Positions 48,516 to 64,000 are shown, counted from the stretch's first letter. The stretch is DNA of 64,000 nucleotides from Terriglobia bacterium (GCA_020072965.1 JAIQFY010000009.1:9649-73648), one strand, 5' to 3'. Numbers and translations are program-made. Notes: generated by a model not told the origin, from the sequence alone.

Positions 48516-50834
48516 TCATCTCTTCAGATGGAGTCCGTTTTCTCCACCCAGATTCACCCGCACCCCGGAGACAAAATTCAAACGATAGGCGGGGAATCCG
48601 AGGACCTCTTCATATCGCTGATTCAGCAAATTGTTTATCCTTGCATACCAGGTGACCCCACTGGAGAAGTCGTACGATCCCCCGACGTTGGCAACAACAA
48701 AGCCGGGATTCTTGAGAATGCAGGGGAGCCCCAGATCGCAGGCAAACGTGCCCAAGTTCGGATCCGTGTCGGTCGTCCTCCCCCGCATCAACGCATCGAG
48801 CGAAAGAACCCACCGCCGATGCGTCCACGTCGCAAAGAAAGAGCCGGAATGAGCCGGGCGGCGGATCAACGGATCCCCAACTTTGAAGATCGATTGGGCG
48901 CGGCCGGGATCGCCGTTCAGCGAGAGAATTTCGGAATTCAGATAAGTATACTGGCCGCCCAAACGGATCTTTGAACTGGGCTGCATCGTCACAGAAACCT
49001 CCATGCCTTGCGCGCGAGCATTGCCCAGGTTGTCGGAGCTGAACGTGGAAAGCTGGCGCAAATCCCCCGTCAGGGTGACGATCTGGTCCTCGAACCGATT
49101 GTAGAAGTACGTAACGTCGAAGAGTGCCCGCGAGTTCCACAAGGACACCTCGGCGCCCGTGTCAAAACTCAAGGACCGCTCAGGACGAAGCCTGGGATTG
49201 CTGGTAAATGCGAGCTCAAATCCATTCGGAGCGCGGATCCCGGTCCCCGCCGAACCGTGCAGCCTGACATAGCTGAACGCGTGATCCATCGACCCTGGCC
49301 GGATGAAATAAGCGGCCGACACTCTCGGGTTGGTTGAGACAATGGAGGACGCCGGAAAATTCTGGTCGTGTGAAAAAGGGACGGCAAGGATATCCTCCGT
49401 CCTGAAGTTTTCGATTCGCACGCCAGCCGTTAGAAAGAGCCGCTGCTGCCAATTCCACTGATTCTCGGCAAAGTATCCAAAATTGTTCCGATGAAGAGCG
49501 AAAATCTGGCCCGTCGGATCTGTCACAAAATTATTCAAAAACCTCTCCCGCTGGTATTCAAACCCGAAGGCGAGGGTGTCACCGGGGAAAAGGAGGAGAT
49601 CACTTTCGCTGCGCAAGGTTCCACGAAAGTTATCGCTAAACGAATCTCCCAGGGAAGGGCTTAAGAATCGAAAATTGCGCGAGAGGAAATTTCCCTCAAA
49701 GCGCTGCCTGAATTTTGAAGAGAACTCGTGCTCGAAGTCCAGCCCATAAACATAGTCATTGTTCTTATCGCGGGACTGAAGATCGAGACCGAAGAAGGTG
49801 CTGTTGGGATCGCTTCCGTATGCCCCCGGGGCGCCTGCGTCGTTGGCATTAAGATTGAAATGGAACGCAGCGTGGGTCCGGGGAGACAGGTCCATGCCGA
49901 TTCGCCCGGAAGCATTCTGGTCGCGGTAGTTGTCGTTAAAATTGGCCCCGTCGGAGTCCATGCGCGACAGGTTCAAGGCCCAATTCACGCTCCGCGTCAG
50001 GCCGTTCGCACCCGCGGCCCAGCGCCGCAACATGTAGCTGCCCCCTTCGGCTTGAAACGAGTACCGGGGGGTCCCTTCCCCGCGCTGCGTAATGACATTA
50101 AGGGTTGCCCCCACGGCCTCCGATCCATAGAGGGCGCTCTGCGCACCGCGCACGACTTCGATGCGATCCACATCATCCGCCACCAGATGCGCGAAATCGT
50201 ATCCCAGCCCTCCCCCAAAGTCGTTGAGCTTCACCCCGTCCAACAGCACCAGGTCGTAATTAGCGTCCCCCCCCCGCGCGAAAATCGAGGTCGTCCCACC
50301 ACGGCGGCCGGCCGAACTCACCGTGAGACCCGGGATCCCTCGCAGCGCATCCTGGATGAGGGGAGCGGCAGAGTTTTTCAAGTCCTCCCCCGTAATAATG
50401 CTGACGGAGCTTCCTACTTGCGCCATCGGCTGGTCGATCAACGACGCGCTGACCAGAACGCTATCAGTTCGGGCACTCAGTTGAAGGCCGATCTCAATAG
50501 ATCGCGTCTGACCGGGCTTCAATGGACCGGTGGGCACTGTTCCTGACGAGAATCCGGGCTGACTGACGATCAACTGGTACTCGATCCCTGCCGAAACTTC
50601 AAAGCGGAACCGCCCCTGGCCGTCGCTCCAGTGGGAAAGGGTGGTCCCCAGGGCATCGATGCAACTGATTTGAGCGCCACGAATAACGGCGCCGGATGGA
50701 TCCTTGATCTGACCCTCGATCACGCTGGTCTGAGCGATCAGGGAAAGATGCAAACCCGTCCATAAAATACAGAAGGCGAAGAGACGCACTGCGCGCTTCG
50801 AAACGCTTTGGCTGTGATTCATCAGTTCCTCCAA
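48516..50834 (-). CDS. TonB-dependent outer-membrane receptor with N-terminal carboxypeptidase-regulatory-like domain
   Basis: Signal peptide. CarboxypepD_reg block QTSVIEGQIKDPSGAVIRGAQI...GRFRFE. Plug domain VSASLIDQPMAQVGSSVSII...DALRGIPG. Long beta-barrel. Confidence 0.85.
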   Translation of the reverse strand: MEELMNHSQSVSKRAVRLFAFCILWTGLHLSLIAQTSVIEGQIKDPSGAVIRGAQISCIDALGTTLSHWSDGQGRFRFEVSAGIEYQLIVSQPGFSSGTVPTGPLKPGQTRSIEIGLQLSARTDSVLVSASLIDQPMAQVGSSVSIITGEDLKNSAAPLIQDALRGIPGLTVSSAGRRGGTTSIFARGGDANYDLVLLDGVKLNDFGGGLGYDFAHLVADDVDRIEVVRGAQSALYGSEAVGATLNVITQRGEGTPRYSFQAEGGSYMLRRWAAGANGLTRSVNWALNLSRMDSDGANFNDNYRDQNASGRIGMDLSPRTHAAFHFNLNANDAGAPGAYGSDPNSTFFGLDLQSRDKNNDYVYGLDFEHEFSSKFRQRFEGNFLSRNFRFLSPSLGDSFSDNFRGTLRSESDLLLFPGDTLAFGFEYQRERFLNNFVTDPTGQIFALHRNNFGYFAENQWNWQQRLFLTAGVRIENFRTEDILAVPFSHDQNFPASSIVSTNPRVSAAYFIRPGSMDHAFSYVRLHGSAGTGIRAPNGFELAFTSNPRLRPERSLSFDTGAEVSLWNSRALFDVTYFYNRFEDQIVTLTGDLRQLSTFSSDNLGNARAQGMEVSVTMQPSSKIRLGGQYTYLNSEILSLNGDPGRAQSIFKVGDPLIRRPAHSGSFFATWTHRRWVLSLDALMRGRTTDTDPNLGTFACDLGLPCILKNPGFVVANVGGSYDFSSGVTWYARINNLLNQRYEEVLGFPAYRLNFVSGVRVNLGGENGLHLKR

Positions 50835-50976
50835 ATTTCAAAAGGCCGTTCTCATTTAAAACACATGAGCCTGCATGGCTAATGGCCGTACCAGAATTCG
50901 TTCAACATCGAACCTCGGAATTCACGGGTTTTACCAATAGCGCTTTTCTCTGTGTCCTCCGCGCGGTGAAATCGTC

Positions 50977-51834
50977 TTACTCATTAATCTCTGATCTCTT
51001 CCCCCTCAGAAGTGTCACCCGGGCCGCGCCGGAGATAGGATTAAGGTCGACCAGGAGATCGGAATCAAAGACCTTGCGAAGCCGCTCTTCGGTCAGCACC
51101 TCAGCGGGCGGTCCAACCGCCAGGGGCACACCGGCATTCAAAAGCAGAATGTGATCCGCGAATTCGGCGGCGAGGTTGAGTTCGTGGGTGACCATGAGGA
51201 CGGCCATGCCGTGCTCCCGCGCCAACCGTTCAACCAGCTCAAGTAGCCCCATCTGAAACGCCACGTCGAGGTTGAGGGTCGGCTCATCCAGCAGGAGCAA
51301 TCCTGGGGTTTGCGCCAGGGCACGGGCCAAAATGACCCGCTGGCGCTCACCGCCCGAAAGTTCGTTCATCCATCGCCGCTCGAAGACCGACGCCTCCGTC
51401 ATCTCGAGAGACCGGCGCACGATGGTCAGGTCTTCGTGCGACGCCAGCTGCAATCCATCGAGGAAGGGATGGCGTGCCAGCAGGCAGTATTCAAGGACGG
51501 TCATGGGAAAATGCAACGAGCTTTCCTGGGCCACCACTGCAATTTGCCTCGCCCGCTCGCGATGCCTCATTCGATGGATGTCCACCCCGTTCCATCGGGC
51601 CCATCCGGAGGTGGGCCGGAGCGTCCCGCTCACCAGCTTGAGCAAGGTCGACTTCCCGGAGCCGTTCGGGCCCACAATTGCCGTTACTTCGGAAGTGCGC
51701 ATGGAAAAGGAAACGGGGTGAAGTTGAAATTTGCCCACTTTCACACCCACATCGTGCAGTTCGAGGCATGAAACGCCGGCAGCGGGCGGTTGCGCATCCA
51801 TCCGGGGTTGTGAATGGGAAGAGATCACTGTCAA
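50977..51834 (-). CDS. ABC transporter ATP-binding protein (FecE/BtuD/HmuV type)
   Basis: Walker A GPNGSGKST. Signature LSGGERQRV. Walker B LLLDEP. Confidence 0.85.
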   Translation of the reverse strand: MTVISSHSQPRMDAQPPAAGVSCLELHDVGVKVGKFQLHPVSFSMRTSEVTAIVGPNGSGKSTLLKLVSGTLRPTSGWARWNGVDIHRMRHRERARQIAVVAQESSLHFPMTVLEYCLLARHPFLDGLQLASHEDLTIVRRSLEMTEASVFERRWMNELSGGERQRVILARALAQTPGLLLLDEPTLNLDVAFQMGLLELVERLAREHGMAVLMVTHELNLAAEFADHILLLNAGVPLAVGPPAEVLTEERLRKVFDSDLLVDLNPISGAARVTLLRGKRSEINE

Positions 51835-52847
51835 TCCTCCGCCCGATCGCGTCTTAACAGGTAAATGAACACCGGGGCTCCCGCCAGCGCTGTAATGGCC
51901 CCGACCGGAAGTTCTGTCGGTGCGACGATGGTTCGTGCAATCAGATCGGCCAGCAAAGTCAGCATGGCCCCCAGGATGGCCGTCGATGGCAGCAGCAGTC
52001 GATAATCATTGCCGAAAAGCATTCGTGCGATGTGCGGAACGATTAACCCCACAAAACCGATGGAGCCGCTGAGGGAGACCGCCAGGCCGGTCAGCAGGGC
52101 CGCCAATACAAAGATCGCCCGCTTCACCCATTCGACAGGCACCCCCAGGTGGGCGGCTTCCTGCTCGCCGATGAGCATGACATTGAGATCGCCTGCAAAG
52201 CGGTAGATCAAGACTACCGTCGTGAGCGTTACCAGCGAAATCCATTTCATCGAGGGGACGTGGACACTGTTGAAGTTACCGGTGAGCCAGAAAGTCGTCT
52301 CGCGCAACTGGCCCCCGCTGAGAAAGGGTTGAATGAAAATGATGACGGATGAAAAGAATGACGCCACGATGATCCCTGCGAGAATCAAGGTGTGCGCGGA
52401 GACTCTTCCCTTCCGGCTTCCCAGGGTGTAAACGAGCACAATGGTGATCAAACCCCCGACAAATGCGGCGGCCGGAGTAGGAATTCCCCATTGACCCGCA
52501 AATGCGATCGATAGAATCGCCGCCAGCGCGGCACCACTGGAAACACCCAGGATATGGGGGTCGGCCAGGGGGTTTCTCAAGAGGGCTTGAAAACTGGCGC
52601 CCGCCACCGCCAGGGCCATCCCGACCAGCATGGCGAGATAAATCCTCGGCATCCGCAGGCTGAAGAGTATCGTGGAAGTCTCCGAGGCCGGGTACTCGCC
52701 GGGATGTGTCAATCGGGTCGAAACACTTTCGAGCACGGTGACAAGCGGGATGTGTGTGCTGCCGATGGACAACGCAACCCCCATCATCCCTGCCAAGAGC
52801 AAGAGCAGCAGAATCAAACGCACCGCCATTTTTTTTCGAGTCAGCAT
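51831..52847 (-). CDS. FecCD-family ABC transporter permease (BtuC-like)
   Basis: 338 aa, about 9 TM helices. Stop/start overlap with the ATPase gene. Confidence 0.85.
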   Translation of the reverse strand: MLTRKKMAVRLILLLLLLAGMMGVALSIGSTHIPLVTVLESVSTRLTHPGEYPASETSTILFSLRMPRIYLAMLVGMALAVAGASFQALLRNPLADPHILGVSSGAALAAILSIAFAGQWGIPTPAAAFVGGLITIVLVYTLGSRKGRVSAHTLILAGIIVASFFSSVIIFIQPFLSGGQLRETTFWLTGNFNSVHVPSMKWISLVTLTTVVLIYRFAGDLNVMLIGEQEAAHLGVPVEWVKRAIFVLAALLTGLAVSLSGSIGFVGLIVPHIARMLFGNDYRLLLPSTAILGAMLTLLADLIARTIVAPTELPVGAITALAGAPVFIYLLRRDRAED

Positions 52848-52958
52848 CCGAAGTCTTGTTCACCGCAGAGGCGCCGGGCAAATTGGGGACAGACACCTTG
52901 CTCTGACAAACCTCGAAAATCCATAAGAGTTGGTGTCTGTCCCATCGCTTTTCGTCCC

Positions 52959-53996
52959 TTAATTCGTCTTCTGATGAAAATATTTTGCAAACTGTTCCAA
53001 GGCGTCAAAGAGCCGCGGGCCCGGGCGGCTGGCATTGTCCTCGACTTTGAAGATCCGGTTCGTCTGTACCGCCGTCGTGTGGCTCCAGCCCGGCCAGGAT
53101 CTCATTTGTTCGATCGCGGGAGAGTTTCCGTTATTTTTCGGGAGAAGGATGATTTCCGGGTCGCGCCTTACAATTTCCTCCAGCGACAATTGCGCCCAGT
53201 CCTGTTTTAGATCGCCGCTGATCGATTCGCCCCCCGCAAGCGAAATCAGATCTGTAATATAGGCCCCGCGTCCCGGCACGCTGATCGGGTTGTACCAAAC
53301 CAGGTAGAGCACCCGAGGCCGGGGCCGTCCCGCCACTTGATTCACGACCGCGTCCCGGCGTTCCCGAAGTGAACGAACGAGGGCGTCCGCTTGGGCCTGG
53401 TTTCCGGTCAACGCGCCGACATCCTCCAAGGCTCGGAAGACATCGTCGACAGACGTCGTGTGCACCCCGTAGAGAGGAATGCCAAAGTGCATCAGCTCGT
53501 CCGCCACAGCAATCTTGTTAATCTCAGGCGTTCCAATCACCAGGTCCGGATGCAGAGAGACGATCACTTCGATGTTGGGATCGATCAATCCCCCCACGCT
53601 GGGCTTCTGCCGGACCTCCGGGGGGTAATCACAATAATCGCTGCGGCCCACCACTCTCTGAGCCAAACCGAGGGCATAGAGAAGTTCGGTGACACTCGGG
53701 GCGATGGAAATGATGCGCTGGGGATGCTCGGGAACCATCACCGTCCGGCCGGTTTCGTCGATGACTTTGCGGTTGGCGGCGGGAGCGAGTATTGGAAAAA
53801 TCAACAGTAACCAGAGTGGGAGGAGAAGTTGCCAGTTGCCAGTGGCCAGTTGCCTAAGTGCAGTTGTCAGTTGTCGGTTCTCAGTTCTCAGTTCCAGGTA
53901 GTCAGTTGCCAGTGGCCAGAAAGACCAGGAGCGGGACTTCGAAGGAATACTGTCAACTCTTGAGCTTCTCATTCTGATGATATTCAATGGAGACAT
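52959..53996 (-). CDS. periplasmic substrate-binding protein of the BtuF/FecB type; true start uncertain because the N-terminal 50 codons are encoded by a heptamer repeat
   Basis: Binding-protein blocks IISIAPSVTELLYALGL and VIVSLHPDL. Signal-like LLLPLWLLLIFPILAPAA follows the repeat-encoded WPLATDYLELRTENRQLTTALRQLATGNWQ. Confidence 0.7.
   Translation of the reverse strand: MSPLNIIRMRSSRVDSIPSKSRSWSFWPLATDYLELRTENRQLTTALRQLATGNWQLLLPLWLLLIFPILAPAANRKVIDETGRTVMVPEHPQRIISIAPSVTELLYALGLAQRVVGRSDYCDYPPEVRQKPSVGGLIDPNIEVIVSLHPDLVIGTPEINKIAVADELMHFGIPLYGVHTTSVDDVFRALEDVGALTGNQAQADALVRSLRERRDAVVNQVAGRPRPRVLYLVWYNPISVPGRGAYITDLISLAGGESISGDLKQDWAQLSLEEIVRRDPEIILLPKNNGNSPAIEQMRSWPGWSHTTAVQTNRIFKVEDNASRPGPRLFDALEQFAKYFHQKTN
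53828..53919. repeat. CAGTTSY heptamer-repeat block with internal direct repeat CAGTTGCCAGTGGCCAG (x2)
   Basis: Read from sequence. A related GCTGAT repeat lies at 54041-54082. Confidence 0.55.
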
Positions 53997-54294: not shown

Positions 54295-54445
54295 GTTCTC
54301 GCCTTCCCATCCCGCTGAAGCGGGGCAGTGGTTTTGAACCCGGAAGCGTGGTCTCACAGTGGCGCGACCGTCGCCGACTTTCACGGCGTTCCCTTTTTGA
54401 CTCCGACCTTTCGGAGTGCCTGAAACCGCTGAGAAAGATCACAGT
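54295..54445 (-). ncRNA. cobalamin (B12) riboswitch leading the btuF-permease-ATPase-TonB-receptor operon
   Basis: Minus-strand RNA contains GGGAAcgccGTGaAAgTCggcgacgGTCGCGCCACTGTGA. This matches the GGGAAnnnGGTGnAAnTCC...CCCGCnACTGT core. Further 3' it contains CCACTG...GGGAAGGC (B12 box and 3' element). Position is appropriate for a B12-uptake operon. Confidence 0.5.
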
Positions 54446-54676
54446 GCTTTTTCACGCTACCAAAAATCGGCTCGGGGTGTCAAATGTTTAAAACACTCTA
54501 CCGCGAAAAAAATCAGAGAAGAGTCCTCATTCCTTAAATCGACAAATTGTGAAAAGCGTCTCATGCGCGGATTCGCTCGACATCCCCCCCGGCTGGTGGC
54601 AGAGTGTTGTCGTTTTACGATATATCTTCCCCTCAACCGTTGGAGACTTACAAAACATATTGAACCGGAGGCGTCT

Positions 54677-57331
54677 ATGACGACCATATCCTTCGGGCCC
54701 CTCAAAACTCTCGCTTTGGGAGCGCTATTGGTGGCTGCGCTTTCAAGCAATATCAATGCGGTGTCCCAAACCCGTCAGCTCCCGCGCGAACTCGACTTCG
54801 CTTATTATTCCTTGCGGGACGGTTTTCTCTCCAGCCTCTCTCTCGTCAACAATTCTCCTACCGCTCTATCTTTCGCAGTTACGATCTTCAGCCGTTCCGG
54901 CCAGAGTGTGGTAGGACCGACAACAGATCTCCCTCCTCAAGCAAACACGTCGGTGGATCTTTCTTCGATTCTGCAGGCGGCCTCCATCGATGCAACCGGC
55001 GATTTTTCGGAGGGCAGCGTGGCCGTGCATTATACGGGCAACGGCTTCAAGCCGCTCGTGGGGCAGTTGGTGATTTCCAATGCCGCCACGGGTGCAGCCT
55101 TTACTTCCGAAATGTTTCAAAACCAGGGAGGAAGCGCAAACGGTCCCCCAGCATTGAATTTCATGTGGTGGGAATTCGATCGGGGAGAAACCGCTCGCAT
55201 CGCCGTGACCAACATTTCCGGCAGCCCGGTGGTGGCTGACATTGTGCTCGAATTCAATGGAAGGCATCGACCGGGTTCGGTGCTCTATTTCAGCGCTCAC
55301 CAGACGATGGTGCTTTTGATGTCGGACATCCTGGACAGCCTCGGCGAAACCTCCGGTTCGGCTCCTCAGGGGGGCATCACCATTGTGCCACGAGGCCCCG
55401 GTTCGCCCCTCATCGCCACGGGTTTGTTGAGTAATCCCATCACTGAATCCGCGACTCCCTTGCCCGTTGCGCACCCGGATCGGCAGTTTGTCAGTGCCCA
55501 GCATGCGATCGGCATCCCGGTGGGCGTCCCCTCTCCCGATTCGCCATATGTAGGTTTGGGAACCTTTGAGCCTCACGTGGTCCTCCGAAACCTCGCCGCT
55601 GCTCCACAAAACGTCACACTCACCGTCGAGTATCCCGGCAACGAAGGCACACAGCAACTCGTGCTGCTGCCATTTCCAGTCGAGGCCAACAATACTAAGG
55701 ATGTTTCTTTGGCTTCGGCCCTGCCTCAGTTGCCGGCGCCGCTGCCTTTTGCTTCGGTTCGCATTCAATACGATGGCGCTCCGGACTCCCTGATGGGCCA
55801 GGTGGAGAGCCGCGAGCAGCAAGGGAGATTGGTGGTAAGCAGCCCTCTGGTCAATGAGGGCGATGGGCAGGCAGGGGCGGGCGCCCATCCCTGGCAGGTC
55901 GATCACGGCACGAATTCCTTTCTGTTCTTGACCAACATGGGCGAGAAACCCAGCCGAATCGGTTTTCAGGTGCAGGCCAAAGGAGTAAACTACTATTTGA
56001 CGAATCTGACGCTCCAGCCGCACGAAACCCGCGCCATCGGTATGCGCGAGCTACGGGATCAGCAGCAGGAAGACTTCCAGAAGAACAAGATTCCGGCGGA
56101 CGCCACGGAAGGCTCGGTGCGCTGGGTGCGGTTGGATAATGTGCCGGTCATGGGGCGGTTGGTGGTATTAAAAGGTCAAGAGCACGAAATTGTCAGTCTG
56201 GGCAAACGGGCAGGTGGGACAGCAAGCGGTAGTGGCCAAGCTCCCCCCACGCCGGTCAACTTCATTTGCCTGGACTGTTTTTGCAACTGTCCTGCCGGCT
56301 TGCAGAGTTTGGGCTACGATGCGGGATGTGACGTCTTGAACGTGATTTCCGGCCAGATCTGTGGAATTTCATTTCTGGGCAATTACGCGGACTGCAATGG
56401 GAATTCCAGCTTCTTTGACGATACGCTGTTCTCGATCCTATCGTTGAGTGATACTTCCGTCGCTACCATTTCCAATTCCACGGACCCGGCATCCCTTACC
56501 GGGGTGGGTCCGGGAACCGCTGACCTCATTGCAGCCTTCACAGACAACTCATACCCGTTTGCTCCCAACAGCTGCTCGCCTTTACTGCATACTGTGCGAG
56601 TCGTACCGCGGGTGATCGTAAAACCAAAGGTCGCATTTGTGGGGGGGAATAGGTTCATGTTTGTTGGAAATGACTCCTCTCTAACAAATGCTAACAGCCA
56701 ATCAGTACAAGGAACCCCTCCTGGAGGACAATACGCTTGGAGTTCGAGCAAGACCTCAATCTCTTTTCAGCCCTATCCGAATATACCCGAGATCACCATC
56801 TTGACCGCTCCGAGCTCTGCTGTTAGCAGTTCGCTGTTGGATACAACCATTACCGTAACGTACACGCTGAATCAACAAACCTCCGCTCCTGCCTCAAAGG
56901 CGATTACGGTGCGAAAGTTCAAGTTCGTAACGAACCAGAGCCCTACTGTGCTCCAGCAAAGCAATGGTTACACGGCTTATGCGATATACACTATTTACAC
57001 AAGCCCTTCTGGACAAAAGCTCGAGGAAGGGCTTAGAGATATTTCCGTCGAAGAGAGTGTCAGCACACAGAGCGCAACTCTCAACGGAACACCGTTAACC
57101 CAAGCGCAATTTAACGCCATTTCCTTCGGTCAGGGACCGGGTGCCACCGATGACCACAGCCAGTTCAAAGATGACTTGAGCTTTACCACGCAGTCAGGCA
57201 CTGCATTACTATCCGGACTTGTGATCACTCAAGCCCAAGACCTCCTTGTTACGGGGTGTTTTGTGCGCCACAACACCCTTCAGTACACTTCAAGCACTGT
57301 GACACTCACAAACGGAGGACCGACGAATTAA
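54677..57331 (+). CDS. large secreted hypothetical protein with C-terminal bacterial Ig-like (Big-type) region
   Basis: Start chosen at MTTISFGPLKTLALGALLVAALSSNINA (signal peptide); the ORF track starts at 54416. Beta-rich. Cys-rich patch FICLDCFCNCPAG. Big-like block SVATISNSTDPASLTGVGPGTADLIAAFTD. Confidence 0.6.
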   Translation: MTTISFGPLKTLALGALLVAALSSNINAVSQTRQLPRELDFAYYSLRDGFLSSLSLVNNSPTALSFAVTIFSRSGQSVVGPTTDLPPQANTSVDLSSILQAASIDATGDFSEGSVAVHYTGNGFKPLVGQLVISNAATGAAFTSEMFQNQGGSANGPPALNFMWWEFDRGETARIAVTNISGSPVVADIVLEFNGRHRPGSVLYFSAHQTMVLLMSDILDSLGETSGSAPQGGITIVPRGPGSPLIATGLLSNPITESATPLPVAHPDRQFVSAQHAIGIPVGVPSPDSPYVGLGTFEPHVVLRNLAAAPQNVTLTVEYPGNEGTQQLVLLPFPVEANNTKDVSLASALPQLPAPLPFASVRIQYDGAPDSLMGQVESREQQGRLVVSSPLVNEGDGQAGAGAHPWQVDHGTNSFLFLTNMGEKPSRIGFQVQAKGVNYYLTNLTLQPHETRAIGMRELRDQQQEDFQKNKIPADATEGSVRWVRLDNVPVMGRLVVLKGQEHEIVSLGKRAGGTASGSGQAPPTPVNFICLDCFCNCPAGLQSLGYDAGCDVLNVISGQICGISFLGNYADCNGNSSFFDDTLFSILSLSDTSVATISNSTDPASLTGVGPGTADLIAAFTDNSYPFAPNSCSPLLHTVRVVPRVIVKPKVAFVGGNRFMFVGNDSSLTNANSQSVQGTPPGGQYAWSSSKTSISFQPYPNIPEITILTAPSSAVSSSLLDTTITVTYTLNQQTSAPASKAITVRKFKFVTNQSPTVLQQSNGYTAYAIYTIYTSPSGQKLEEGLRDISVEESVSTQSATLNGTPLTQAQFNAISFGQGPGATDDHSQFKDDLSFTTQSGTALLSGLVITQAQDLLVTGCFVRHNTLQYTSSTVTLTNGGPTN

Positions 57332-58047
57332 TGGAGACCCCAGCCATGTCCATCCAATACGGATTCTGCGCTGTACTGATGCTCTGGTTTCTTTCACCAT
57401 TGGGACTCAGGGGACAGGGCTCAAAGCCAAATGAGTCGACGGTGGATCTTTTACAGCAGCCCATTCAAGAGCTAACCCTCAAGGACCAATATTTCATGGA
57501 CGGGATCGTGAAACTTGACAGTCTGGCTTCAGGATTGGGTTTCTCTGTGGAATATATCCTTCCCTCACCCGAGGCGCCACGGCCCGTTGACCCTAGATTT
57601 ACAGCCAAAATCACTGCAGTTACTCTATCGGAAGCGCTGGACTGGTTGTGCAGATTGGATCCTCGATACACTTGGTCGCGGGATGGAACCACGATCAACG
57701 TCTTTCCGCGAGCAAGCCTGGAGGAAAAAAATTACTATTTCACCCGAAAGTTGTCGAATCTTGTCTTCCGCGACGAGCGAAATGCTTATCATGCTCTTCC
57801 CAAAATCCTCAAACCCATTTCATCGCCCAAGGAGGCGGTCATTACATGGTCTGGGGTGAGGGATTATCAGACTCCTTTTAATGCCAGTCTTACAAACATT
57901 ACTGTGCGAGAGGCGTTGAATCGCCTGATACAGCATCTTTCACCCACTGAAGGGTGGATGGTGACTGGGAATCAAGAGGTCATGCTGCTCGTTGTCTACG
58001 ATACCATCACTCTTCGACCGCCGACAAGCAACGCAGAAAGGCCGTGA
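57322..58047 (+). CDS. secreted hypothetical protein
   Basis: Start at METPAMSIQYGFCAVLMLWFLSPLGLRG (signal peptide). Overlaps the upstream gene end by a few nucleotides. Confidence 0.5.
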   Translation, partial: DELMETPAMSIQYGFCAVLMLWFLSPLGLRGQGSKPNESTVDLLQQPIQELTLKDQYFMDGIVKLDSLASGLGFSVEYILPSPEAPRPVDPRFTAKITAVTLSEALDWLCRLDPRYTWSRDGTTINVFPRASLEEKNYYFTRKLSNLVFRDERNAYHALPKILKPISSPKEAVITWSGVRDYQTPFNASLTNITVREALNRLIQHLSPTEGWMVTGNQEVMLLVVYDTITLRPPTSNAERP

Positions 58048-58074
58048 CGTCAAGCTGCGTGTGTAAAATCACCT

Positions 58075-58300
58075 GGGGCGGGGTGGCGCACACATCGCGT
58101 TGGATGCGATGTGTGCGAGTCATCTGAGGAAGGGAGTTCCACTGCCGGTTTAGAACGATGTCTCTGGAGATTCAAAGAAAATGGCTCCATCGAGATGAGT
58201 TGCTGTTGGGACGAAATGATTCACGTTAAATGTCTGCCAAAAAAAAGAAACGCACACACGCAAAGAACACGTGTATGCGCCACCCAGCCCATATGGCACT
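58075..58300. repeat. copy B of the duplicated ~230-bp non-coding element (see 18343-18575)
   Basis: Shares the CGCACACATCGCG..GATGTGTGCGAGTCAT hairpin, GATGTCTCTGGAGATTCAAAG, and the ...TGCGCCACCC segment with copy A. Lies directly after a gene stop, as copy A does. Confidence 0.5.
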
Positions 58301-58602
58301 TCACTCTTTCAATGCCAAAAGAGAAATGAAAACGTGGAAGTAAGAAGGGGTCAACCCGGGACATTGGACAAATGGAAGTTCCAGAAACGATAAACAGAAT
58401 GAATGGGTCAGGCACTCGTATTACAATCACACTTGTTATCCAGCTCATCAAGTCAAAGTGAACGGAAGGGTAGTTTATAATTACACTCCAACGAGAAATG
58501 ATCTTGTTTATATTGTACAGTGCCTTACTGGACTGCTCCCCACGATCAGCAACCAGACAGGGCCCGTTCCGGTTCCGACCCGATTGGGGGTAGGAGTAAT
58601 CA

Positions 58603-60132
58603 ATGATCAGACCCTCGCTGACAAAGAGCTTAGGCTGGGTCTTCATTCTGTTGAGCTATGCTTCGGCCACCGTCCATAGCCAGATGGCGACTCCTCAGAA
58701 CAAGGGTGTAGAACCCCTTGAGAGTTTCTTCCGAGCATCAGTGGTGGAAGCCAAGAATTCTTCTGTGCCCGTAGAACGAAAAGTCTTGGAATTAAACGAC
58801 AGGATTACAGCCGCCAGTCCCGAAGAGATTCATACGGCTCTACCCTCGATTTTGACAGCGTTGAAATCTCCAGACAAAGAGGTGAAGAGGCTTGCCACTG
58901 CGGCCTTAATGACAATCAGTCTGCGGACCGATGGCGGGAGGATTCTCGGGAGCCACGTCACTGAAATCAGCGATCTATTCAACTCGCCGGAGTATTATTT
59001 CCAGCGCGGCGCCGCAGTTATTCTCGGTGTGCTCCGACCATCTCCTCCCCCAGAGGCGATTCCGCCTATGGTAAGCTTTCTGGAACGGACCGACCGGGAT
59101 CTTCCAGCCCAGAGGACTACCCTCGGCACCCTCGCCCGATTTGGAGGAGAAAACCCACAGGCCCGAAGGGCCATTCTGGACTTCCTCTCTCGGCCCATGA
59201 ATGTTGCCGAACGCATCGATGCCCTCAATGCGATGGGAGACCCTCGGGTCAAAGATCCAATTCTCATAAATAAAATCGTCGCGTCTCTTCATGATCCCGA
59301 TCCCCAAGCCAGGCTTGCCGCAATCAATGTGATCACGCGCATTGGGAAGCTTGCTCTGTCGCGGGCAGAGCCTGATTTGCATCGACTGGCCGAGGGCACT
59401 GACGAACCGCAGGAGGTGAAAGCGGCTGCACAGGAGGCCCTTCGGGAGATACAACGCGCCGGCCTTAGCGAACAGATCAACCGGGCAGGCGCCAATGAAA
59501 TCGGCAGATTGTTGCCCTCGATCGTCGCGGCCTTGGCGAATCCGGACGACGCGGTCAAGCTTGACGCGACCATTGCCCTGAGTCAAATCAGCGCGCGACC
59601 GGATAGTGCTGCCCTCCTGACGCCATTCATCAGTGACATCGCCGGTCTCTTGAAGCTGCCCGATAGGAGCTTGCAGCATATGGGAGCCTTTTTGCTGAGT
59701 AGCTTGAAGCCTTCTTCTCCCCCTGAGGTCGTTCCTCCTTTACTGGCATTTCTTAAGCGAACGGACTGTGACACCGAAGAACAGGCGGACCTCATCTTCG
59801 TGCTGGCCCATTATGTTCGCGACTATCCCGAAGTGGGAGACGCCATCGAACGCTTCCTGGCACGACCCTTGGAAGTAAAGGCGAGAATAGTCGCTTTAAC
59901 TGGTCTAGGCAGCTCCCACATCAGCAGCGGCCCGATCCTGGACGAGGTGATTCTGTCTTTGCGTGATCCGAATCAGGACATTAGGCTTGCCGCCATAGAA
60001 ACCCTCACGCGCCTGGGACCGCAGGCGTTGCCTCGCGCTGAGCCGGATCTGCAGCGGATTGCCAACCGAGCCGATGAGTCGCCCGATGTAAGGGAGGCAG
60101 CCAAGCGAGCCTTCAATGCTACACGCCGTTGA
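58603..60132 (+). CDS. secreted HEAT/PBS-lyase-repeat protein
   Basis: Signal peptide. Repeated alpha-helical units, such as IVASLHDPDPQARLAAINVITRIG and ILSLRDPNQDIRLAAIETLTRLG. Confidence 0.7.
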   Translation: MIRPSLTKSLGWVFILLSYASATVHSQMATPQNKGVEPLESFFRASVVEAKNSSVPVERKVLELNDRITAASPEEIHTALPSILTALKSPDKEVKRLATAALMTISLRTDGGRILGSHVTEISDLFNSPEYYFQRGAAVILGVLRPSPPPEAIPPMVSFLERTDRDLPAQRTTLGTLARFGGENPQARRAILDFLSRPMNVAERIDALNAMGDPRVKDPILINKIVASLHDPDPQARLAAINVITRIGKLALSRAEPDLHRLAEGTDEPQEVKAAAQEALREIQRAGLSEQINRAGANEIGRLLPSIVAALANPDDAVKLDATIALSQISARPDSAALLTPFISDIAGLLKLPDRSLQHMGAFLLSSLKPSSPPEVVPPLLAFLKRTDCDTEEQADLIFVLAHYVRDYPEVGDAIERFLARPLEVKARIVALTGLGSSHISSGPILDEVILSLRDPNQDIRLAAIETLTRLGPQALPRAEPDLQRIANRADESPDVREAAKRAFNATRR

Positions 60133-60543
60133 ACTGCTCGAGTAGATCGCCCAAAAGTACTTTCGATTGCCGTTCCAGGTATACAATGACATCCATCTCG
60201 CCGTCCATCAGATCCCACATGTTGAGCGAGACGTCCTCCCACTCGACAATTGCTTCGCAGCGATAAGGCGGGCTATAACCCTTCTTCGACTCGGCGATAA
60301 AGCAGATGGGACGGGCGAATCAGTGAGCCGATCACTGCCTGATTACCGCCTTGGATCTCCCCCTTCATTACCCTCGCTGCCCCTCCGGTCTGTTCATTCC
60401 CCTGTTAGAGAAATCTGACACCAGCGAATGACAACCTCGTCGATTTGTGACACGGTCAAGCCCCCGACCCTCAGAGTCTGCTTGACCCTTTGAGTAACAT
60501 TCGTTATTCTATGTAACGACTGTTACGTCCATATATTTTTATT

Positions 60544-61587
60544 ATGCGCTGGCTCTTCCTTGTGCATCAGATTCCCCCGCAACCGTCGCAGGCCCGCGTC
60601 AAGACCTGGCGCGCCCTGAAGAAAATGGGGGCGGTGCTGCATCGCAACTCGGTTTACGTCCTTCCCTATTCCAAAGACCAGCATGAAGACTTCGAATGGT
60701 TGTCGCAGCAGATTCGCGACAGCGGGGGCGAGGCGTCGGTGTTTCTTTCGGAGGCTTTGAGCGAGCAGGAGAATCACGAATTGGTTCGACAGTTCCAGAC
60801 GGCCCGGGTCGCTGACTACGCGGATTTGTTACGGCAGTCCGGGATCCTGGGGCAAAAACTGGACGCCAGCCGGGACCGCGCGCATCTCTCCCCGCAGCGC
60901 ATGAAGAAGATGCTTTCAGGTTGGGATGATCTGAAGTCGTCGCTCGAACGGATACGCCGTGTGGATTTTTTTCACTCGAACCGGGCTCGCGTGGTGGAGG
61001 AGCAGGTGGCCCGCCTCGGACGGCAACTGCAGGCGCTGCGCAGCCCGACCCCCGAGGGCTCCCCACCTCCGCTCTCCAGCGGCCGCTGCTCCCCGAAGCA
61101 ATTTCACGGCAAAACCTGGGTGACGCGCCGCGACCTGCATATTGACCGGCTGGCGTCGGCCTGGCTGATCCGCCGTTTCATCGACCCGAAGGCAAAAATC
61201 AAGTTTGCACCGGAAGGCCGAATTCCCCGCGGCCCAATCCCCTTCGATTGCTTTGGCGCGGAATTCAGTCATCACGGGGAGGATTGCACCTTTGAGACCT
61301 TCATCAAGCGATTTCAATTGCACTCCGATTCAGCCCTCGCGGATATTGCCGAAATCGTCCATGACGTCGATCTCAAAGACGAGAAGTTTGGCCGGGCGGA
61401 AGCGACAGGATTCGACCTCGTCATCCAATCGCTCTGTTCGCCAGTCATAGACGATTCCAAGAGGCTGGAAGAGGGGCTCCGGCTGTTCAACCAGCTTTAC
61501 GAATACTTGAAGCAAAAGCACAAGTCTAAAGGGGGGCACGTCCCGGGACGAGTCAACCATCCGTCATCCGGAAGAGTGCCGAAGTGA
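60544..61587 (+). CDS. ChrB-family protein (ChrB N-terminal domain plus C-terminal chromate-resistance domain)
   Basis: WLFLVHQIPPQPSQARVKTWRALKKMGAVLHRNSVYVLP (ChrB_N-like). C-terminal VTRRDLHIDRLASAWLIRRFIDPKAKIKF (Chrome_Resist-like). Confidence 0.7.
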   Translation: MRWLFLVHQIPPQPSQARVKTWRALKKMGAVLHRNSVYVLPYSKDQHEDFEWLSQQIRDSGGEASVFLSEALSEQENHELVRQFQTARVADYADLLRQSGILGQKLDASRDRAHLSPQRMKKMLSGWDDLKSSLERIRRVDFFHSNRARVVEEQVARLGRQLQALRSPTPEGSPPPLSSGRCSPKQFHGKTWVTRRDLHIDRLASAWLIRRFIDPKAKIKFAPEGRIPRGPIPFDCFGAEFSHHGEDCTFETFIKRFQLHSDSALADIAEIVHDVDLKDEKFGRAEATGFDLVIQSLCSPVIDDSKRLEEGLRLFNQLYEYLKQKHKSKGGHVPGRVNHPSSGRVPK

Positions 61588-62795
61588 ACACGGTGAATTC
61601 CCTGAGCCTGCGGAAATCGTCTTCCATCGAGCGCAACGTCATCATCCTGTCAATCGCTGTTTTTCTGGTCGCGTTTGGCGAAGAACTTTGGAACAGTTTT
61701 CTCCCGAAGTACCTGGAAGCGCTAGGCGGTTCCATCGCCCTGATTGCCGTCTTTGGCACCTTCAAAGACTTCCTCGATGCCATTTATCAATACCCCGGAG
61801 GAGTCCTGTCCGACCGACTGGGTGAACGACAGGCCCTGACCTTATTCGCCGGGATGGCGGCCTGCGGTTATGCTATTTACTTAGTGAGCTCGCGACCATG
61901 GATGCTTTTCATCGGAGTTTTATTTGTCATGAGTTGGTCGTCTCTGGCGTCTCCCGCCCTCTTCGCCATGATCGGCGCGACCCTTCCCAGCGAGCGCAGG
62001 ACGCTGGGGTTTTCCTGGCAATCGCTGTTGAAACGACTCCCCATCATCATTGCCCCCGCCCTGGGGGGACTCCTGATCGCTCATGAGGGAATAATTCGCG
62101 GAGTCCGGACAGGGCTGGCCATCGCCATCCTGATGGCTATATTAACGATGATCCTACAACAAAGGTTCTACATTCAAACTCCGACCGCGCCTATCAGTCC
62201 CCCCGGGGGGATGGCCCTGCTCTTCCGGAGTTTTTCACCAGTCCTCAAGCAGCTCCTGTTTTCGGACATCCTCGCGAGGCTCGCTGAGGGGATCGCCGAG
62301 ATCTTCATCGTAATTTATGCCATCAACTTCATCGGCCTGAATCCGAAACAGTTTGGACTGCTCGTCGGCGTCCAAATGACCACCGCCATCGTGGGGTATC
62401 TCCCGGCGGCTGCCCTGACGGTCCGGATCGGACGGAAGCCGCTCGTTTTTTTCACGTTCGTTTGCTTCGCACTTTTCCCCTTGATGGTTGCGTATGCCCA
62501 GAGCTTTCCGCAGATGCTCGGAGCGTTTGTTGTTGGAGGCCTCCGAGAGTTCGGGGAACCCGCGCGGAAAGCGATGATTGTGAACTTTGCGGGTGAACAA
62601 TCCCGGGGGCGCCATGTCGGGCTCTACTATTTAATCCGGAATATTTCAGTGACTCCGGCTGCCGCGGTGGGAGGATGGCTTTGGCATGTTCTATCACCAA
62701 ACGCCACTTTCCATGCTGCCTTCCTGTGCGGGGTGGCCGGAGCCCTCTTCTTCCTTTTTTCTGTTCATGATAAGACACCGGAGGTGAATGCATGA
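61584..62795 (+). CDS. MFS transporter (12 TM)
   Basis: 403 aa, hydrophobic throughout. Start overlaps the upstream stop (ATGA). Stop overlaps the downstream start. Confidence 0.85.
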   Translation: MNTVNSLSLRKSSSIERNVIILSIAVFLVAFGEELWNSFLPKYLEALGGSIALIAVFGTFKDFLDAIYQYPGGVLSDRLGERQALTLFAGMAACGYAIYLVSSRPWMLFIGVLFVMSWSSLASPALFAMIGATLPSERRTLGFSWQSLLKRLPIIIAPALGGLLIAHEGIIRGVRTGLAIAILMAILTMILQQRFYIQTPTAPISPPGGMALLFRSFSPVLKQLLFSDILARLAEGIAEIFIVIYAINFIGLNPKQFGLLVGVQMTTAIVGYLPAAALTVRIGRKPLVFFTFVCFALFPLMVAYAQSFPQMLGAFVVGGLREFGEPARKAMIVNFAGEQSRGRHVGLYYLIRNISVTPAAAVGGWLWHVLSPNATFHAAFLCGVAGALFFLFSVHDKTPEVNA

Positions 62796-63223
62796 GGTGG
62801 ATTACTCGAGAAAATGTGAAAGTTGATCGTGTGGCCTGCCCCTGGTTGATTAAGCGTTTTATCGATTCGAGCGCGGAATTTATCTTTTGTCCAGAAGACC
62901 GTATCGTGGATCGGGCCAGCGAACTACAAGCGACACCTTTTGACGTCCCCAAAAACCCTGCGATTAAATTGAATCATCGCGATGGAAAATGTTCATTTGA
63001 AACTATCCTCGAAGAATTCCACTTAACTGGGAATCCCGCACTGGCGCGACTCGCTCTCATCGTGCATGGGGCCGATATCCCCAGTGAAATGCATGTCGCC
63101 CCCGAAAGCGCGGGGCTCTACGCGATTGCCAATGGATTTTCCAAAACCTGCACCTCCGATGATGAGCGCCTGGAAAAGCAATTTCCGGTTTATGATGCGT
63201 TGTATGAATTCTGCAAGAAGTGA
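62792..63223 (+). CDS. stand-alone chromate-resistance (ChrB C-terminal-like) domain protein
   Basis: MRWITRENVKVDRVACPWLIKRFIDSSAEFIF parallels the C-terminal domain block of the 60544 gene. Confidence 0.65.
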   Translation: MRWITRENVKVDRVACPWLIKRFIDSSAEFIFCPEDRIVDRASELQATPFDVPKNPAIKLNHRDGKCSFETILEEFHLTGNPALARLALIVHGADIPSEMHVAPESAGLYAIANGFSKTCTSDDERLEKQFPVYDALYEFCKK

Positions 63224-63230
63224 GAAGAAG

Positions 63231-63494
63231 TTGTCAGTTCTCAGTTGCCAGTTGCCAGAAGGCAGTTGTCAGTTCTCAGTTCTCAGTTGTCAGTTGAAGT
63301 ACTCCCGCGCTCCGTGACTCTCCAATCTGGCTGCATACGCAACTCACATCCAGTCTGGCGCGACATCGAAAGAAAGGAATTGAGTGGTCAGTTGTGATTG
63401 AGGTCCACTTCCGTTCTCTGACCTCTGGCTATTCTTTCAAACCACTGAAGTCTCTCTCTTCACTGATAACTGAGAACTGAGAACTGACAACTGC
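63231..63494. repeat. CAGTTSY heptamer-repeat arms in inverted orientation flanking ~160 bp
   Basis: Left arm 63231-63297 (GTTGTCAGTTCTCAGTTGCCAGTTGCCAG...CAGTTCTCAGTTCTCAGTTGTCAGTTG). Right arm 63461-63494 (CACTGATAACTGAGAACTGAGAACTGACAACTGC). Confidence 0.55.
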
Positions 63495-63514
63495 TCTTAA
63501 ACAAGGAGCCCAAT

Positions 63515-64000
63515 ATGAAATCCATGAAAAGATTCACAACGAGGTTCGGTTTTCTTAGTATCGTCACCTTCATCACCCTTTTGATCCTCCCCCAGGCCCT
63601 CACCCTGGCAGCAGGTGACGACTCCTCCTGGAAAAAAGTTGAAGCGATCTTCGGGAGGACCGGAACCTACAGCGGAAGCATAGCCAAGTTCGGATTTCCC
63701 CGCACCGACCTGAAGGTGACGCTGGGAGGGGTGACGCTCAAGCCGGGGCTGGCCCTTGGTTCCTGGGCGGCGTTCGCCGGGACTGAAGAGTCCGCCACCA
63801 TGATGGGAGACCTGGTGCTCTTGCCGAGTGAAATCGAAGGGGTTGTTGACCGGCTTGAAGCGGGCGGCGTTATGATCTCCGCTCTCCACAACCATCTTCT
63901 CGGCGAGACCCCTCACGTGATGTATCTGCATTACATGGGGCATGGCAATGCCGAAACACTTGCAAAAGCCCTGAAGACCGCGCTCTCAACAACAGCTACT
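63515..64000 (+). CDS. DUF1259-family secreted protein, 3'-truncated by window end
   Basis: AAGGAG ribosome-binding site. Signal peptide. FPRTDLKVTLGGVTLKPGLALGSWAAF and MISALHNHLLGETPHVMYLHYMGHG blocks. Confidence 0.65.
   Translation, partial: MKSMKRFTTRFGFLSIVTFITLLILPQALTLAAGDDSSWKKVEAIFGRTGTYSGSIAKFGFPRTDLKVTLGGVTLKPGLALGSWAAFAGTEESATMMGDLVLLPSEIEGVVDRLEAGGVMISALHNHLLGETPHVMYLHYMGHGNAETLAKALKTALSTTAT

Follow-up and report, generated by a model that had tools for sequence, protein, structure and literature searches.

Chromate resistance is usually annotated as efflux through ChrA assisted by helper proteins, so a locus that places the regulator ChrB beside a transporter of another class raises the question of which pump ChrB commands there and what this pump moves. 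Such a locus lies near the end of a 64,000-nucleotide (nt) stretch of DNA from a Terriglobia bacterium (GCA_020072965.1 JAIQFY010000009.1:9649-73648), hereafter the window, in which three open reading frames (ORFs) encode a ChrB-type protein (ORF1), a transporter of the major facilitator superfamily (MFS; ORF2) and a small protein of the ChrB C-terminal type (ORF3). An earlier note, made from the sequence, had read them as a translationally coupled three-gene operon without ChrA, in which a ChrB-like sensing module has been recruited to a different transporter class. In the reading that we favour, and to which we give about an even chance, the genes form a ChrB-repressed, chromate-induced operon whose MFS protein exports an oxyanion in place of ChrA. 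All components come from known families; their arrangement recurs elsewhere but has not been described.

The three ORFs have been recovered with the boundaries first proposed for them (Table 1). From the overlaps described between them, the ATGA of ORF2 and ORF3 stands (4 nt, 62792-62795, with GGAGG at 62781-62785), but at the junction of ORF1 and ORF2 the overlap is a 4-nt GTGA and not the implied ATGA; the GTG start at 61584 overlaps the TGA stop at 61585-61587. Identical 4-nt overlaps are retained in L004 and L005, two Terriglobia relatives whose MFS protein is 87% identical to ORF2, and the gene order chrB-MFS-chrB_C-DUF1259 is conserved there as well. The cluster does not end with the three genes: a fourth gene, for a DUF1259 protein, continues it. 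This gene is cut by the window end and has been found complete (309 amino acids (aa), 10724-11653) on L001, a public contig that encodes an identical ORF3 protein and reaches 10 kb past the window end, which brings the sequence seen to 74 kb.

Table 1. Positions of the features described, counted from the first nucleotide of the window.
Feature	Position	Strand	Basis or remark
Sigma-70-type promoter: TTGACC 60482-60487, 17-nt spacer, TATTCT 60505-60510	60482-60510	+	Consensus scan
Operator candidate 1: GTAAC-ATTC-GTTAT, overlaps -10	60494-60507	none	Palindrome
Operator candidate 2: GTAAC-GACT-GTTAC, over expected transcription start	60513-60526	none	Perfect palindrome
ORF1, chrB, full-length regulator, 347 aa	60544-61587	+	Pfam ChrB_N + ChrB_C
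ORF2, MFS transporter, 403 aa, GTG start	61584-62795	+	Pfam MFS_1 + MFS_3
ORF3, chrF-like stand-alone ChrB_C protein, 143 aa	62792-63223	+	Pfam ChrB_C
Structured spacer	63226-63495	+	5' arm 63226-63300 (heptamer repeats) pairs with 3' arm 63462-63495
DUF1259 (ChrL/ChrY-type) secreted protein, 5' part only, cut by window end	63515-64000	+	PF07485

The regulator has been described before as a ChrB_N-domain protein. This domain is indeed present (PF20229, residues 18-160, E=7e-12, 46 bits against a Pfam cutoff of 23), but ORF1 is a complete ChrB, which also carries ChrB_C (PF09828, residues 192-321, E=9e-44, 149.5 bits against a cutoff of 25). It aligns with the pMOL28-type ChrB1 over the full length at 29% identity (E=3e-42), and its identity to studied or plasmid ChrBs is 29-40%. 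The chromate-resistance block that ORF1 and ORF3 had been said to have in common is found in both ChrB_C copies, as 194-TRRDLHIDRLASAWLIRRFID-214 in ORF1 and 5-TRENVKVDRVACPWLIKRFID-25 in ORF3, with the common pattern TRxxxxxDRxAxxWLIxRFID. For ChrB of O. tritici it has been reported that mutation of R18 or R23 leads to constitutive expression, attributed to DNA binding, that mutation of R180, R187 or H229 abolishes induction by chromate, and that the protein binds an inverted repeat overlapping the -10 element from which chromate derepresses (PMC3817168). Residues R18, R23, R195, R202 and H243 of ORF1 are invariant in 11 ChrBs, and the last three match R180, R187 and H229 of O. tritici by motif spacing (R+7R, RR at +8/+9) rather than by alignment with the O. 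tritici sequence. On the fold of the sensor domain, the rhodanese-like nature that has been claimed in print for the ChrB C-terminus receives no support from the predicted ChrB_C model; a PDB sequence search with ChrB_C has given no match, and a fold search a sole match, an uncharacterised H. pylori protein. NCBI gives the name 'sulfurtransferase/chromate resistance protein' to some plasmid proteins whose match is confined to ChrB_C, a name which suggests fusions with a sulfurtransferase domain.

Directly in front of ORF1, a promoter and two candidate operators have been found (Table 1), the latter without further match in the 64-kb window (two against 0.31 expected). In L004 and L005 the -35 element TTGAC, the -10 element TA(T/A)TCT and all four half-sites are conserved and the surrounding spacer has diverged; even within the GTAAC-N4-GTTAC palindromes the 4-nt spacers vary while the half-sites are invariant. 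All ten exact copies of the palindrome in 1.01 Mb of loci of the MFS family stand just 5' of chrB, and 11 of 12 exact copies in 524 kb of independent metagenome ChrB loci lie within 200 nt upstream of chrB. Upstream of the fetched proteobacterial chrB genes the palindrome has not been found, and the candidate operator is specific to the ChrB subfamily nearest ORF1. As in O. tritici, one inverted repeat overlaps the -10 element and the key residues of ChrB are matched by spacing, whereas the O. tritici operator has been described as AT-rich. Repression of the operon by ChrB and its release by chromate would fit this layout. At one locus without chrB, L055, a near-perfect candidate operator (GTAAGACTCGTTAC, 7886-7899) precedes the MFS gene by 52 nt; L055 has as its sister L075, a locus of the chrB-MFS type, which suggests either control in trans or recent loss of chrB.

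The assignment of ORF2 to the MFS rather than to the CHR family has been confirmed: MFS_1 matches with E=3e-32 (112 bits against a cutoff of 33.4), and the AlphaFold model (predicted local distance difference test, pLDDT, 88.7) has 12 long transmembrane (TM) helices in two halves of six, with a central loop at 196-218. Foldseek has placed this model at probability 1.00 with many MFS structures, and a PDB sequence search with ORF2 has returned generic MFS matches only. Among the Pfam subfamily models, MFS_3, of the EntS-type exporters, alone exceeds its cutoff (33.8 bits against 27). None of the four proteins has an NCBIfam model above cutoff, and the strongest full-length NCBIfam similarities of ORF2, all far under the cutoffs, are to exporters of the EntS, Tet and MdtH type. 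TM5 holds a block that is invariant in the family, (A/S)P-x-(L/I)-GG-x-L-I, with a partial likeness to antiporter motif C (G-x-x-x-G-P-x-x-G-G); motif C (G-P-x-x-G-G) marks H+ antiporters. Charged residues that are conserved in the TM helices are E33, E34, D65, K150, R151, R232, R321, R328 and R352. ORF2 is not an ortholog of ChrP, the MFS protein of plasmid pMOL28, as its comparison with the pMOL28-type ChrP has given E=0.29, in contrast to a true ChrP ortholog, the MFS protein of L093, which gives E=6e-81 to ChrP and E=7e-6 (24%) to ORF2. Among E. coli plasmid records, none matches ORF2 at E<=1e-5, and the MFS relatives on haloarchaeal plasmids (~33% identity) have no chr context.

That ORF3 is a stand-alone ChrB_C protein has been borne out by Pfam, whose ChrB_C model spans residues 3-141, in effect the whole length (E=1e-44), with no other Pfam domain; the predicted model has a pLDDT of 91.8. 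The protein is 46% identical (E=7e-48) to the pMOL28-type 140-aa ChrB_C protein in the chrF position, whereas its identity to the C-domain of ORF1 is 36%, which places it nearer to ChrF. Moreover, the cloning primer for O. tritici chrF encodes MKWITRE, an N-terminus common with ORF3. ORF3 is thus a homolog of ChrF and as such no oddity, since ChrF belongs to chr operons such as chrBAF and chrBACF, and it retains R6, R13 and H62, the presumed ligand-site residues of the ChrB sensor domain. Two cysteines, C16 (62837-62839) and C67 (62990-62992), are invariant in ChrF-type proteins (VACPWLI and KCSFE; 37 homologs). In full-length ChrBs the first cysteine site reads Ser-Ala (Cys-Ala in two) and the second cysteine is usually kept; the pair might form a redox or metal site that is peculiar to ChrF. 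The DUF1259 protein (PF07485, E=3e-40) is 31% identical to the pMOL28-type protein in the ChrY position (E=5e-42), the alignment covering both repeats, and has a hydrophobic, signal-like N-terminal segment with no lipobox cysteine. It belongs to the ChrL/ChrY family (LppY/LpqO). With ORF3 as a ChrF homolog and a downstream member of the ChrL/ChrY family, the cluster reads chrB-MFS-chrF-chrY.

No chrA (Chromate_transp, PF02417) has been detected in the 64-kb window or on L001 with a ChrA query, with a ChrA profile at E<=1 or by Pfam annotation. The operon without ChrA of the earlier note has therefore held, also against a chrA gene following just outside the window, which the note had named as a finding that would refute it. 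Past the DUF1259 gene, L001 continues with a MacB/FtsX-type permease, a PAP2 phosphatase, a glycosyltransferase and a hydrolase. Among the closest known systems is the cluster of pMOL28 from C. metallidurans, published as chrIBACEFONPYZ with chrP as an MFS gene, of which chrO, chrN, chrP, chrY and chrZ are induced by chromate (PMC2864759). The fetched pMOL28-type cluster (L087) agrees with this order, as it encodes in succession a regulator, ChrB, ChrA, a superoxide dismutase (SOD), the ChrE rhodanese, the 140-aa ChrB_C protein, two small proteins, an MFS protein, a DUF1259 protein and a YncE-type protein. Both clusters hold a full-length ChrB, a stand-alone ChrB_C protein, an MFS permease and a DUF1259 gene, in pMOL28 beside the MFS gene. 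In contrast to the window, pMOL28 has the ChrA pump as well as ChrC, ChrE, ChrI, ChrO, ChrN and ChrZ, its gene order differs, and its ChrP belongs to another MFS family than ORF2; ChrC (SOD), ChrE (rhodanese), ChrI, ChrO, ChrN and ChrZ have not been found in the window. A like frame is seen in chrBAF of the C. metallidurans chromosome (Rmet_3866-3864) and in chrBACF of the O. tritici transposon TnOtChr, in which ChrB likewise comes first, the transporter second and ChrF last, but where the transporter is ChrA of the CHR family (PMC2864759, PMC3817168, PMC4779226). Given the identities of chrB, of an MFS gene of a new family, of chrF and of chrL/chrY, the window therefore has the classical chrBAF/chrBACF frame with the transporter exchanged.

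Two further systems have been compared. In Arthrobacter sp. FB24, the LppY/LpqO lipoprotein ChrL is chromate-induced, needed for full resistance and equated with Rmet_6195, that is, chrY (PMC2751784). Like the window, this actinobacterium has separate ChrB-Cterm genes and a DUF1259 protein, ChrL, and its accessory genes count as much as ChrA; unlike the window, it has ChrA, a short CHR gene, split ChrB N and C genes, the WD40 protein ChrK and ChrJ, and no MFS gene. The second is Tn6452, a Tn3-family transposon in the E. coli plasmid pEC1897-13 (L086 4986-7190), where the gene of a ChrB_N-only protein of 180 aa ends 19 nt before mcr-5.1, so that a lipid A phosphoethanolamine transferase is coupled to a regulator with a ChrB-type N-domain. 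As in the window, a ChrB-family gene is joined there to something other than ChrA, but with the N-domain alone and without ChrF or DUF1259; that Tn6452 might carry the same pair of ChrB and MFS genes has been ruled out.

From the identities, the operator layout and the conservation, we infer how the operon might work, including repression and derepression, the effector, and the direction and substrate of transport. ChrB dimers would bind the two palindromes over the -10 element and the transcription start and keep the operon repressed. A tetrahedral oxyanion, most likely chromate, would bind the C-terminal domain of ChrB (R195, R202, H243) and lift the repression, upon which the translationally coupled genes would be produced together. 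The MFS protein would then act as a proton-coupled exporter that clears the oxyanion from the cytoplasm. In the cytoplasm the ChrF-like protein may be an oxyanion-binding helper, a modulator of ChrB or a protectant against oxidative stress, and the secreted DUF1259 protein would work in the periplasm.

Whether the MFS gene belongs to the chr system has been judged from 80 reference-genome loci with ORF2 relatives (48-87% identity, all Acidobacteriota), whose neighbours have been classed by purpose-built profiles. At least one chr-type neighbour is present in 35 of the 80 loci, and in 20 of the 38 that have at least 5 kb on both sides. chrA is found in 19 of the 80, mostly abutting or overlapping the MFS start, and chrB without chrA in ten. 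The order chrB-chrA-MFS-chrF, with DUF1259 further downstream, occurs in L061 and L064, and other members of the family stand as chrA-MFS or chrB-MFS. In a neighbour-joining tree, chr linkage is scattered across the entire MFS family, and the Terriglobia clade that includes the window (with L004-L007) is always chr-linked and never accompanied by chrA. Because the overlaps are kept in L004 and L005, chr linkage is frequent and family members recur in independent ChrB loci, we count the MFS gene as part of the chr system. The coupling of a ChrB sensing module to a non-CHR transporter, as the earlier note had supposed, has thus gained support from the conserved gene order in L004 and L005, from the ten loci with chrB and no chrA, from independent metagenome ChrB loci with an MFS gene of this or of the ChrP family, several of them without chrA, and from the conserved candidate operator. 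The notion of a recruitment to another transporter class needs amending in one respect, since the frequent adjacency of chrA makes the ORF2-type MFS a recurrent chr accessory, at times standing alone, and not simply a one-off replacement.

The family loci without chr linkage give grounds for a different view, which we consider unlikely: that the MFS protein imports a nutrient oxyanion (sulfate or molybdate) while excluding chromate, and that ChrB induces it under chromate stress, with the usual uptake routes for sulfate or molybdate poisoned or closed, to relieve starvation for S or Mo. Chromate enters cells via sulfate transporters and brings about sulfur starvation. Upstream of the MFS gene, unlinked loci carry on the same strand a DUF47-PiT permease pair and modA, with a gene for a sulfate-binding protein in divergent orientation; ModA and the sulfate-binding protein have scored above curated cutoffs. 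In L030, L048 and L056, modA abuts the MFS gene on the same strand with gaps of 2-17 nt, and L074 combines a sulfate-binding protein, ModA, ChrA, the MFS protein and DUF1259. The gene upstream of an ORF2-type MFS is repeatedly one for handling a tetrahedral oxyanion, a link to oxyanions that also speaks for the reading we favour, and the adjacency of chrA and the MFS gene would be more easily explained if the jobs of the two transporters differ. However, the modA/PiT pattern belongs mostly to one subclade of Pyrinomonadaceae and amounts to few independent events, and for an MFS gene an orphan modA is an unusual abutting neighbour, since the use of periplasmic binding proteins by MFS transporters is not known. 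Export is favoured, furthermore, because other loci encode an exporter at the place of ORF2 between ChrB and ChrF-DUF1259, either ChrA or, in L089, an RND pump, and because the nearest curated families of ORF2, of the EntS and DHA type, are exporters and TM5 shows an antiporter-like motif.

The Pyrinomonadaceae layout without chr genes can be described as a divergent sulfate-binding gene, DUF47-PiT, an orphan modA, sometimes a B12-radical-SAM gene, then MFS, PepE and SpoIID (L021, L022, L027, L030, L036, L039-L041, L045, L048, L052, L056, L066, L069); no modB or modC has been seen near the orphan modA in these loci.

Outside the reference genomes, ChrB relatives are very common in ordinary soil metagenomes (at least 593), of which 80 loci have been fetched and scored by the presence or absence of neighbours. 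Where at least 1.5 kb is available downstream (n=39), 23 loci have chrA, 11 an MFS gene and 6 an MFS gene without chrA; with at least 3 kb on both sides (n=16), chrA is present in 11. Members of the ORF2 family (35-50% identity) occur in the ChrB loci L098, L106, L114, L124 and L162, and MFS proteins of the ChrP family in L116, L156 and L169. The relatives of ORF3 at ~60% identity, examined for their context, extend this range. In L089 (1-7411) the order is ChrB-[OEP-RND-MFP]-ChrF-DUF1259, with a tripartite RND pump exactly between ChrB and ChrF; L091 and L092 read ChrF-DUF1080-DUF1259-ChrA-WD40. L093 (1-9460, a metagenome-assembled genome of Limnocylindrales) holds an RND system followed by Rieske-ChrB-ChrF-MFS-DUF1080-DUF1259 and no chrA, its MFS being a ChrP ortholog (41% identical to the pMOL28-type ChrP) and not a relative of ORF2. 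Like the window, L093, L156 and L169 thus have ChrB, a ChrF-type gene, DUF1259 and an MFS gene with no chrA in view, L093 as an independent case from another phylum, although with the order chrB-chrF-chrP-DUF1080-DUF1259 and with an MFS protein only remotely similar to ORF2. The chrA-less, MFS-bearing chrB cluster is therefore a recurrent architecture with two unrelated MFS families. We put forward, tentatively and at somewhat short of an even chance, that the ORF2-type MFS represents, as its first member, a family of transporters for inorganic tetrahedral oxyanions which has not been described so far and is able to serve as the sole chromate efflux pump in place of ChrA, and that ChrB, ChrF and DUF1259 form a transporter-agnostic kit used with at least four pump types (ChrA, ChrP-type MFS, ORF2-type MFS and RND).

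Several other neighbours recur around ChrB. RND efflux systems (OEP-RND-MFP) flank or neighbour ChrB, ChrF or DUF1259 genes also in L129, L138 and L163. DUF1080 genes (3-keto-disaccharide hydrolase-like, PF06439) are frequent in ChrB loci, often right after chrB or beside DUF1259, as in L091-L093 and many of L096-L175 (L102, L109, L110, L120, L130, L134, L138, L163); no mention of DUF1080 as a chr gene has been found in the chr literature searched. WD40 beta-propeller genes, like chrK of Arthrobacter, also recur.

The abundance of the kit in ordinary soil bears on a second alternative, which we hold to be distinctly unlikely, namely that ChrB senses another anion or stress (e.g., molybdate, tungstate, vanadate or an organic anion), that the MFS protein exports this compound, and that 'chromate resistance' is an annotation taken over from remote relatives among the Proteobacteria. 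Besides this abundance and the low identity of ORF1 to ChrBs that have been studied or lie on plasmids, such a view could draw on the ~30-40% of adequately flanked ChrB loci without chrA, on the ChrB relatives that adjoin RND pumps, and on the ChrB_N-only protein of Tn6452, whose place before mcr-5 has no relation to chromate. Against it stand the residues of the O. tritici chromate response, which are invariant here as far as they can be mapped by spacing, and the MFS family itself, which repeatedly adjoins true ChrA. Furthermore, the ChrF and DUF1259 families are chromate-induced in C. metallidurans and in Arthrobacter FB24, in which the induction proved specific with respect to lead, arsenate and H2O2 (PMC2864759, PMC2751784). 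We give little credit to a third alternative, in which a chrA elsewhere in the genome does the efflux, nothing has replaced ChrA, and the MFS protein is a secondary accessory with another task, such as the export of a reductant, of a damaged metabolite or of a complex of Cr(III). In its favour, the 74 kb seen are a part of the genome, two chr loci that differ in their genes are present in C. metallidurans (PMC2864759), and chrA alone gives Arthrobacter FB24 ~1/10 of full resistance, with accessory genes giving the remainder (PMC2751784). Against it, no Terriglobia-clade locus has chrA nearby, the operon with its own ChrB and candidate operator is a self-contained regulatory unit, and chrA-less, MFS-bearing ChrB loci recur independently (L098, L124, L153, L156, L162, L169, L093).

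The reading of a ChrB-controlled oxyanion exporter has to be set against a number of points that weigh on the other side. The sequence and structure neighbours of ORF2 are generic MFS proteins (NorA, LmrP, YajR, OxlT) at 13-17% identity, which give no clue to the substrate, and the match to motif C is imperfect, with Ala or Ser where Gly is expected. A functional study of an ORF2-type MFS or of ChrP has not been found in the searchable literature. If both exported chromate, the MFS protein beside ChrA in 19 of 80 loci would be redundant, and the adjacency of modA, which encodes an uptake binding protein, fits import better than export. The effector specificity of ChrB is known from Proteobacteria only, and the residues of O. 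tritici have been mapped onto ORF1 by spacing; chrA could also lie elsewhere in this genome, of which 74 kb have been seen. Finally, O. tritici ChrF has been reported as a Mn-containing SOD and not as an oxyanion binder (PMC4779226). This assignment is a single biochemical report, and the fold is unlike that of known SODs. Given the one SOD report, the non-SOD fold and the conserved, presumed ligand-site residues of ChrB, we regard both a SOD and an oxyanion-binding role of ChrF as possible.

The locus and its relatives show that in abundant soil phyla (Acidobacteriota, Chloroflexota) pumps other than ChrA are often coupled to the ChrB sensor with its helpers, so that surveys which count chrA will miss part of the environmental capacity for handling chromate or related oxyanions. 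With ORF2 there is a concrete, testable candidate for another transporter class, the second, that acts on chromate or oxyanions, and the four-gene cluster is a natural minimal system in which the roles of ChrF and the DUF1259 protein could be studied. The set of promoter, operator and ChrB from Acidobacteria could serve as a biosensor part.

The intergenic region between ORF3 and the DUF1259 gene (63224-63514) has a structure of its own. Tandem CAGTTNT heptamers on its 5' side and their complement on the 3' side are predicted to form a long-range stem, with an inverted repeat of 33 nt (97% complementary) and an RNA fold of -108 kcal/mol (z=-5.9 against shuffles), and the stem ends ~10 nt before AAGGAG, the Shine-Dalgarno sequence of the DUF1259 gene. 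In L004 (3054-3282) and L005 (9640-9926) the stem layout is kept with the heptamer CAGTGGN and matching changes of the 3' arm. L006 has no such spacer, and its DUF1259 homolog and chrF-like gene share 4 nt. A search of the region, spacer included, has matched no Rfam family; the spacer may have a part in the regulation of the operon.

Around the operon, a MacB/FtsX-type permease of the ADOP family follows repeatedly after chr-linked MFS genes (L001 11909-13123, L004 4700-5914, L005 11108-12322, L037, L038, L051, L075), a recurrence that could reflect the high copy number of ADOP in Acidobacteriota. Upstream, three genes with little or no annotation lie on the + strand (54416-60132), one of which encodes a HEAT-repeat protein of 509 aa and the other two proteins of ~884-971 aa and ~233-263 aa that match no Pfam family. 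Beyond them, still further upstream, the - strand (48516-53996) carries a TonB-dependent receptor with a FecCD-type ABC uptake system.

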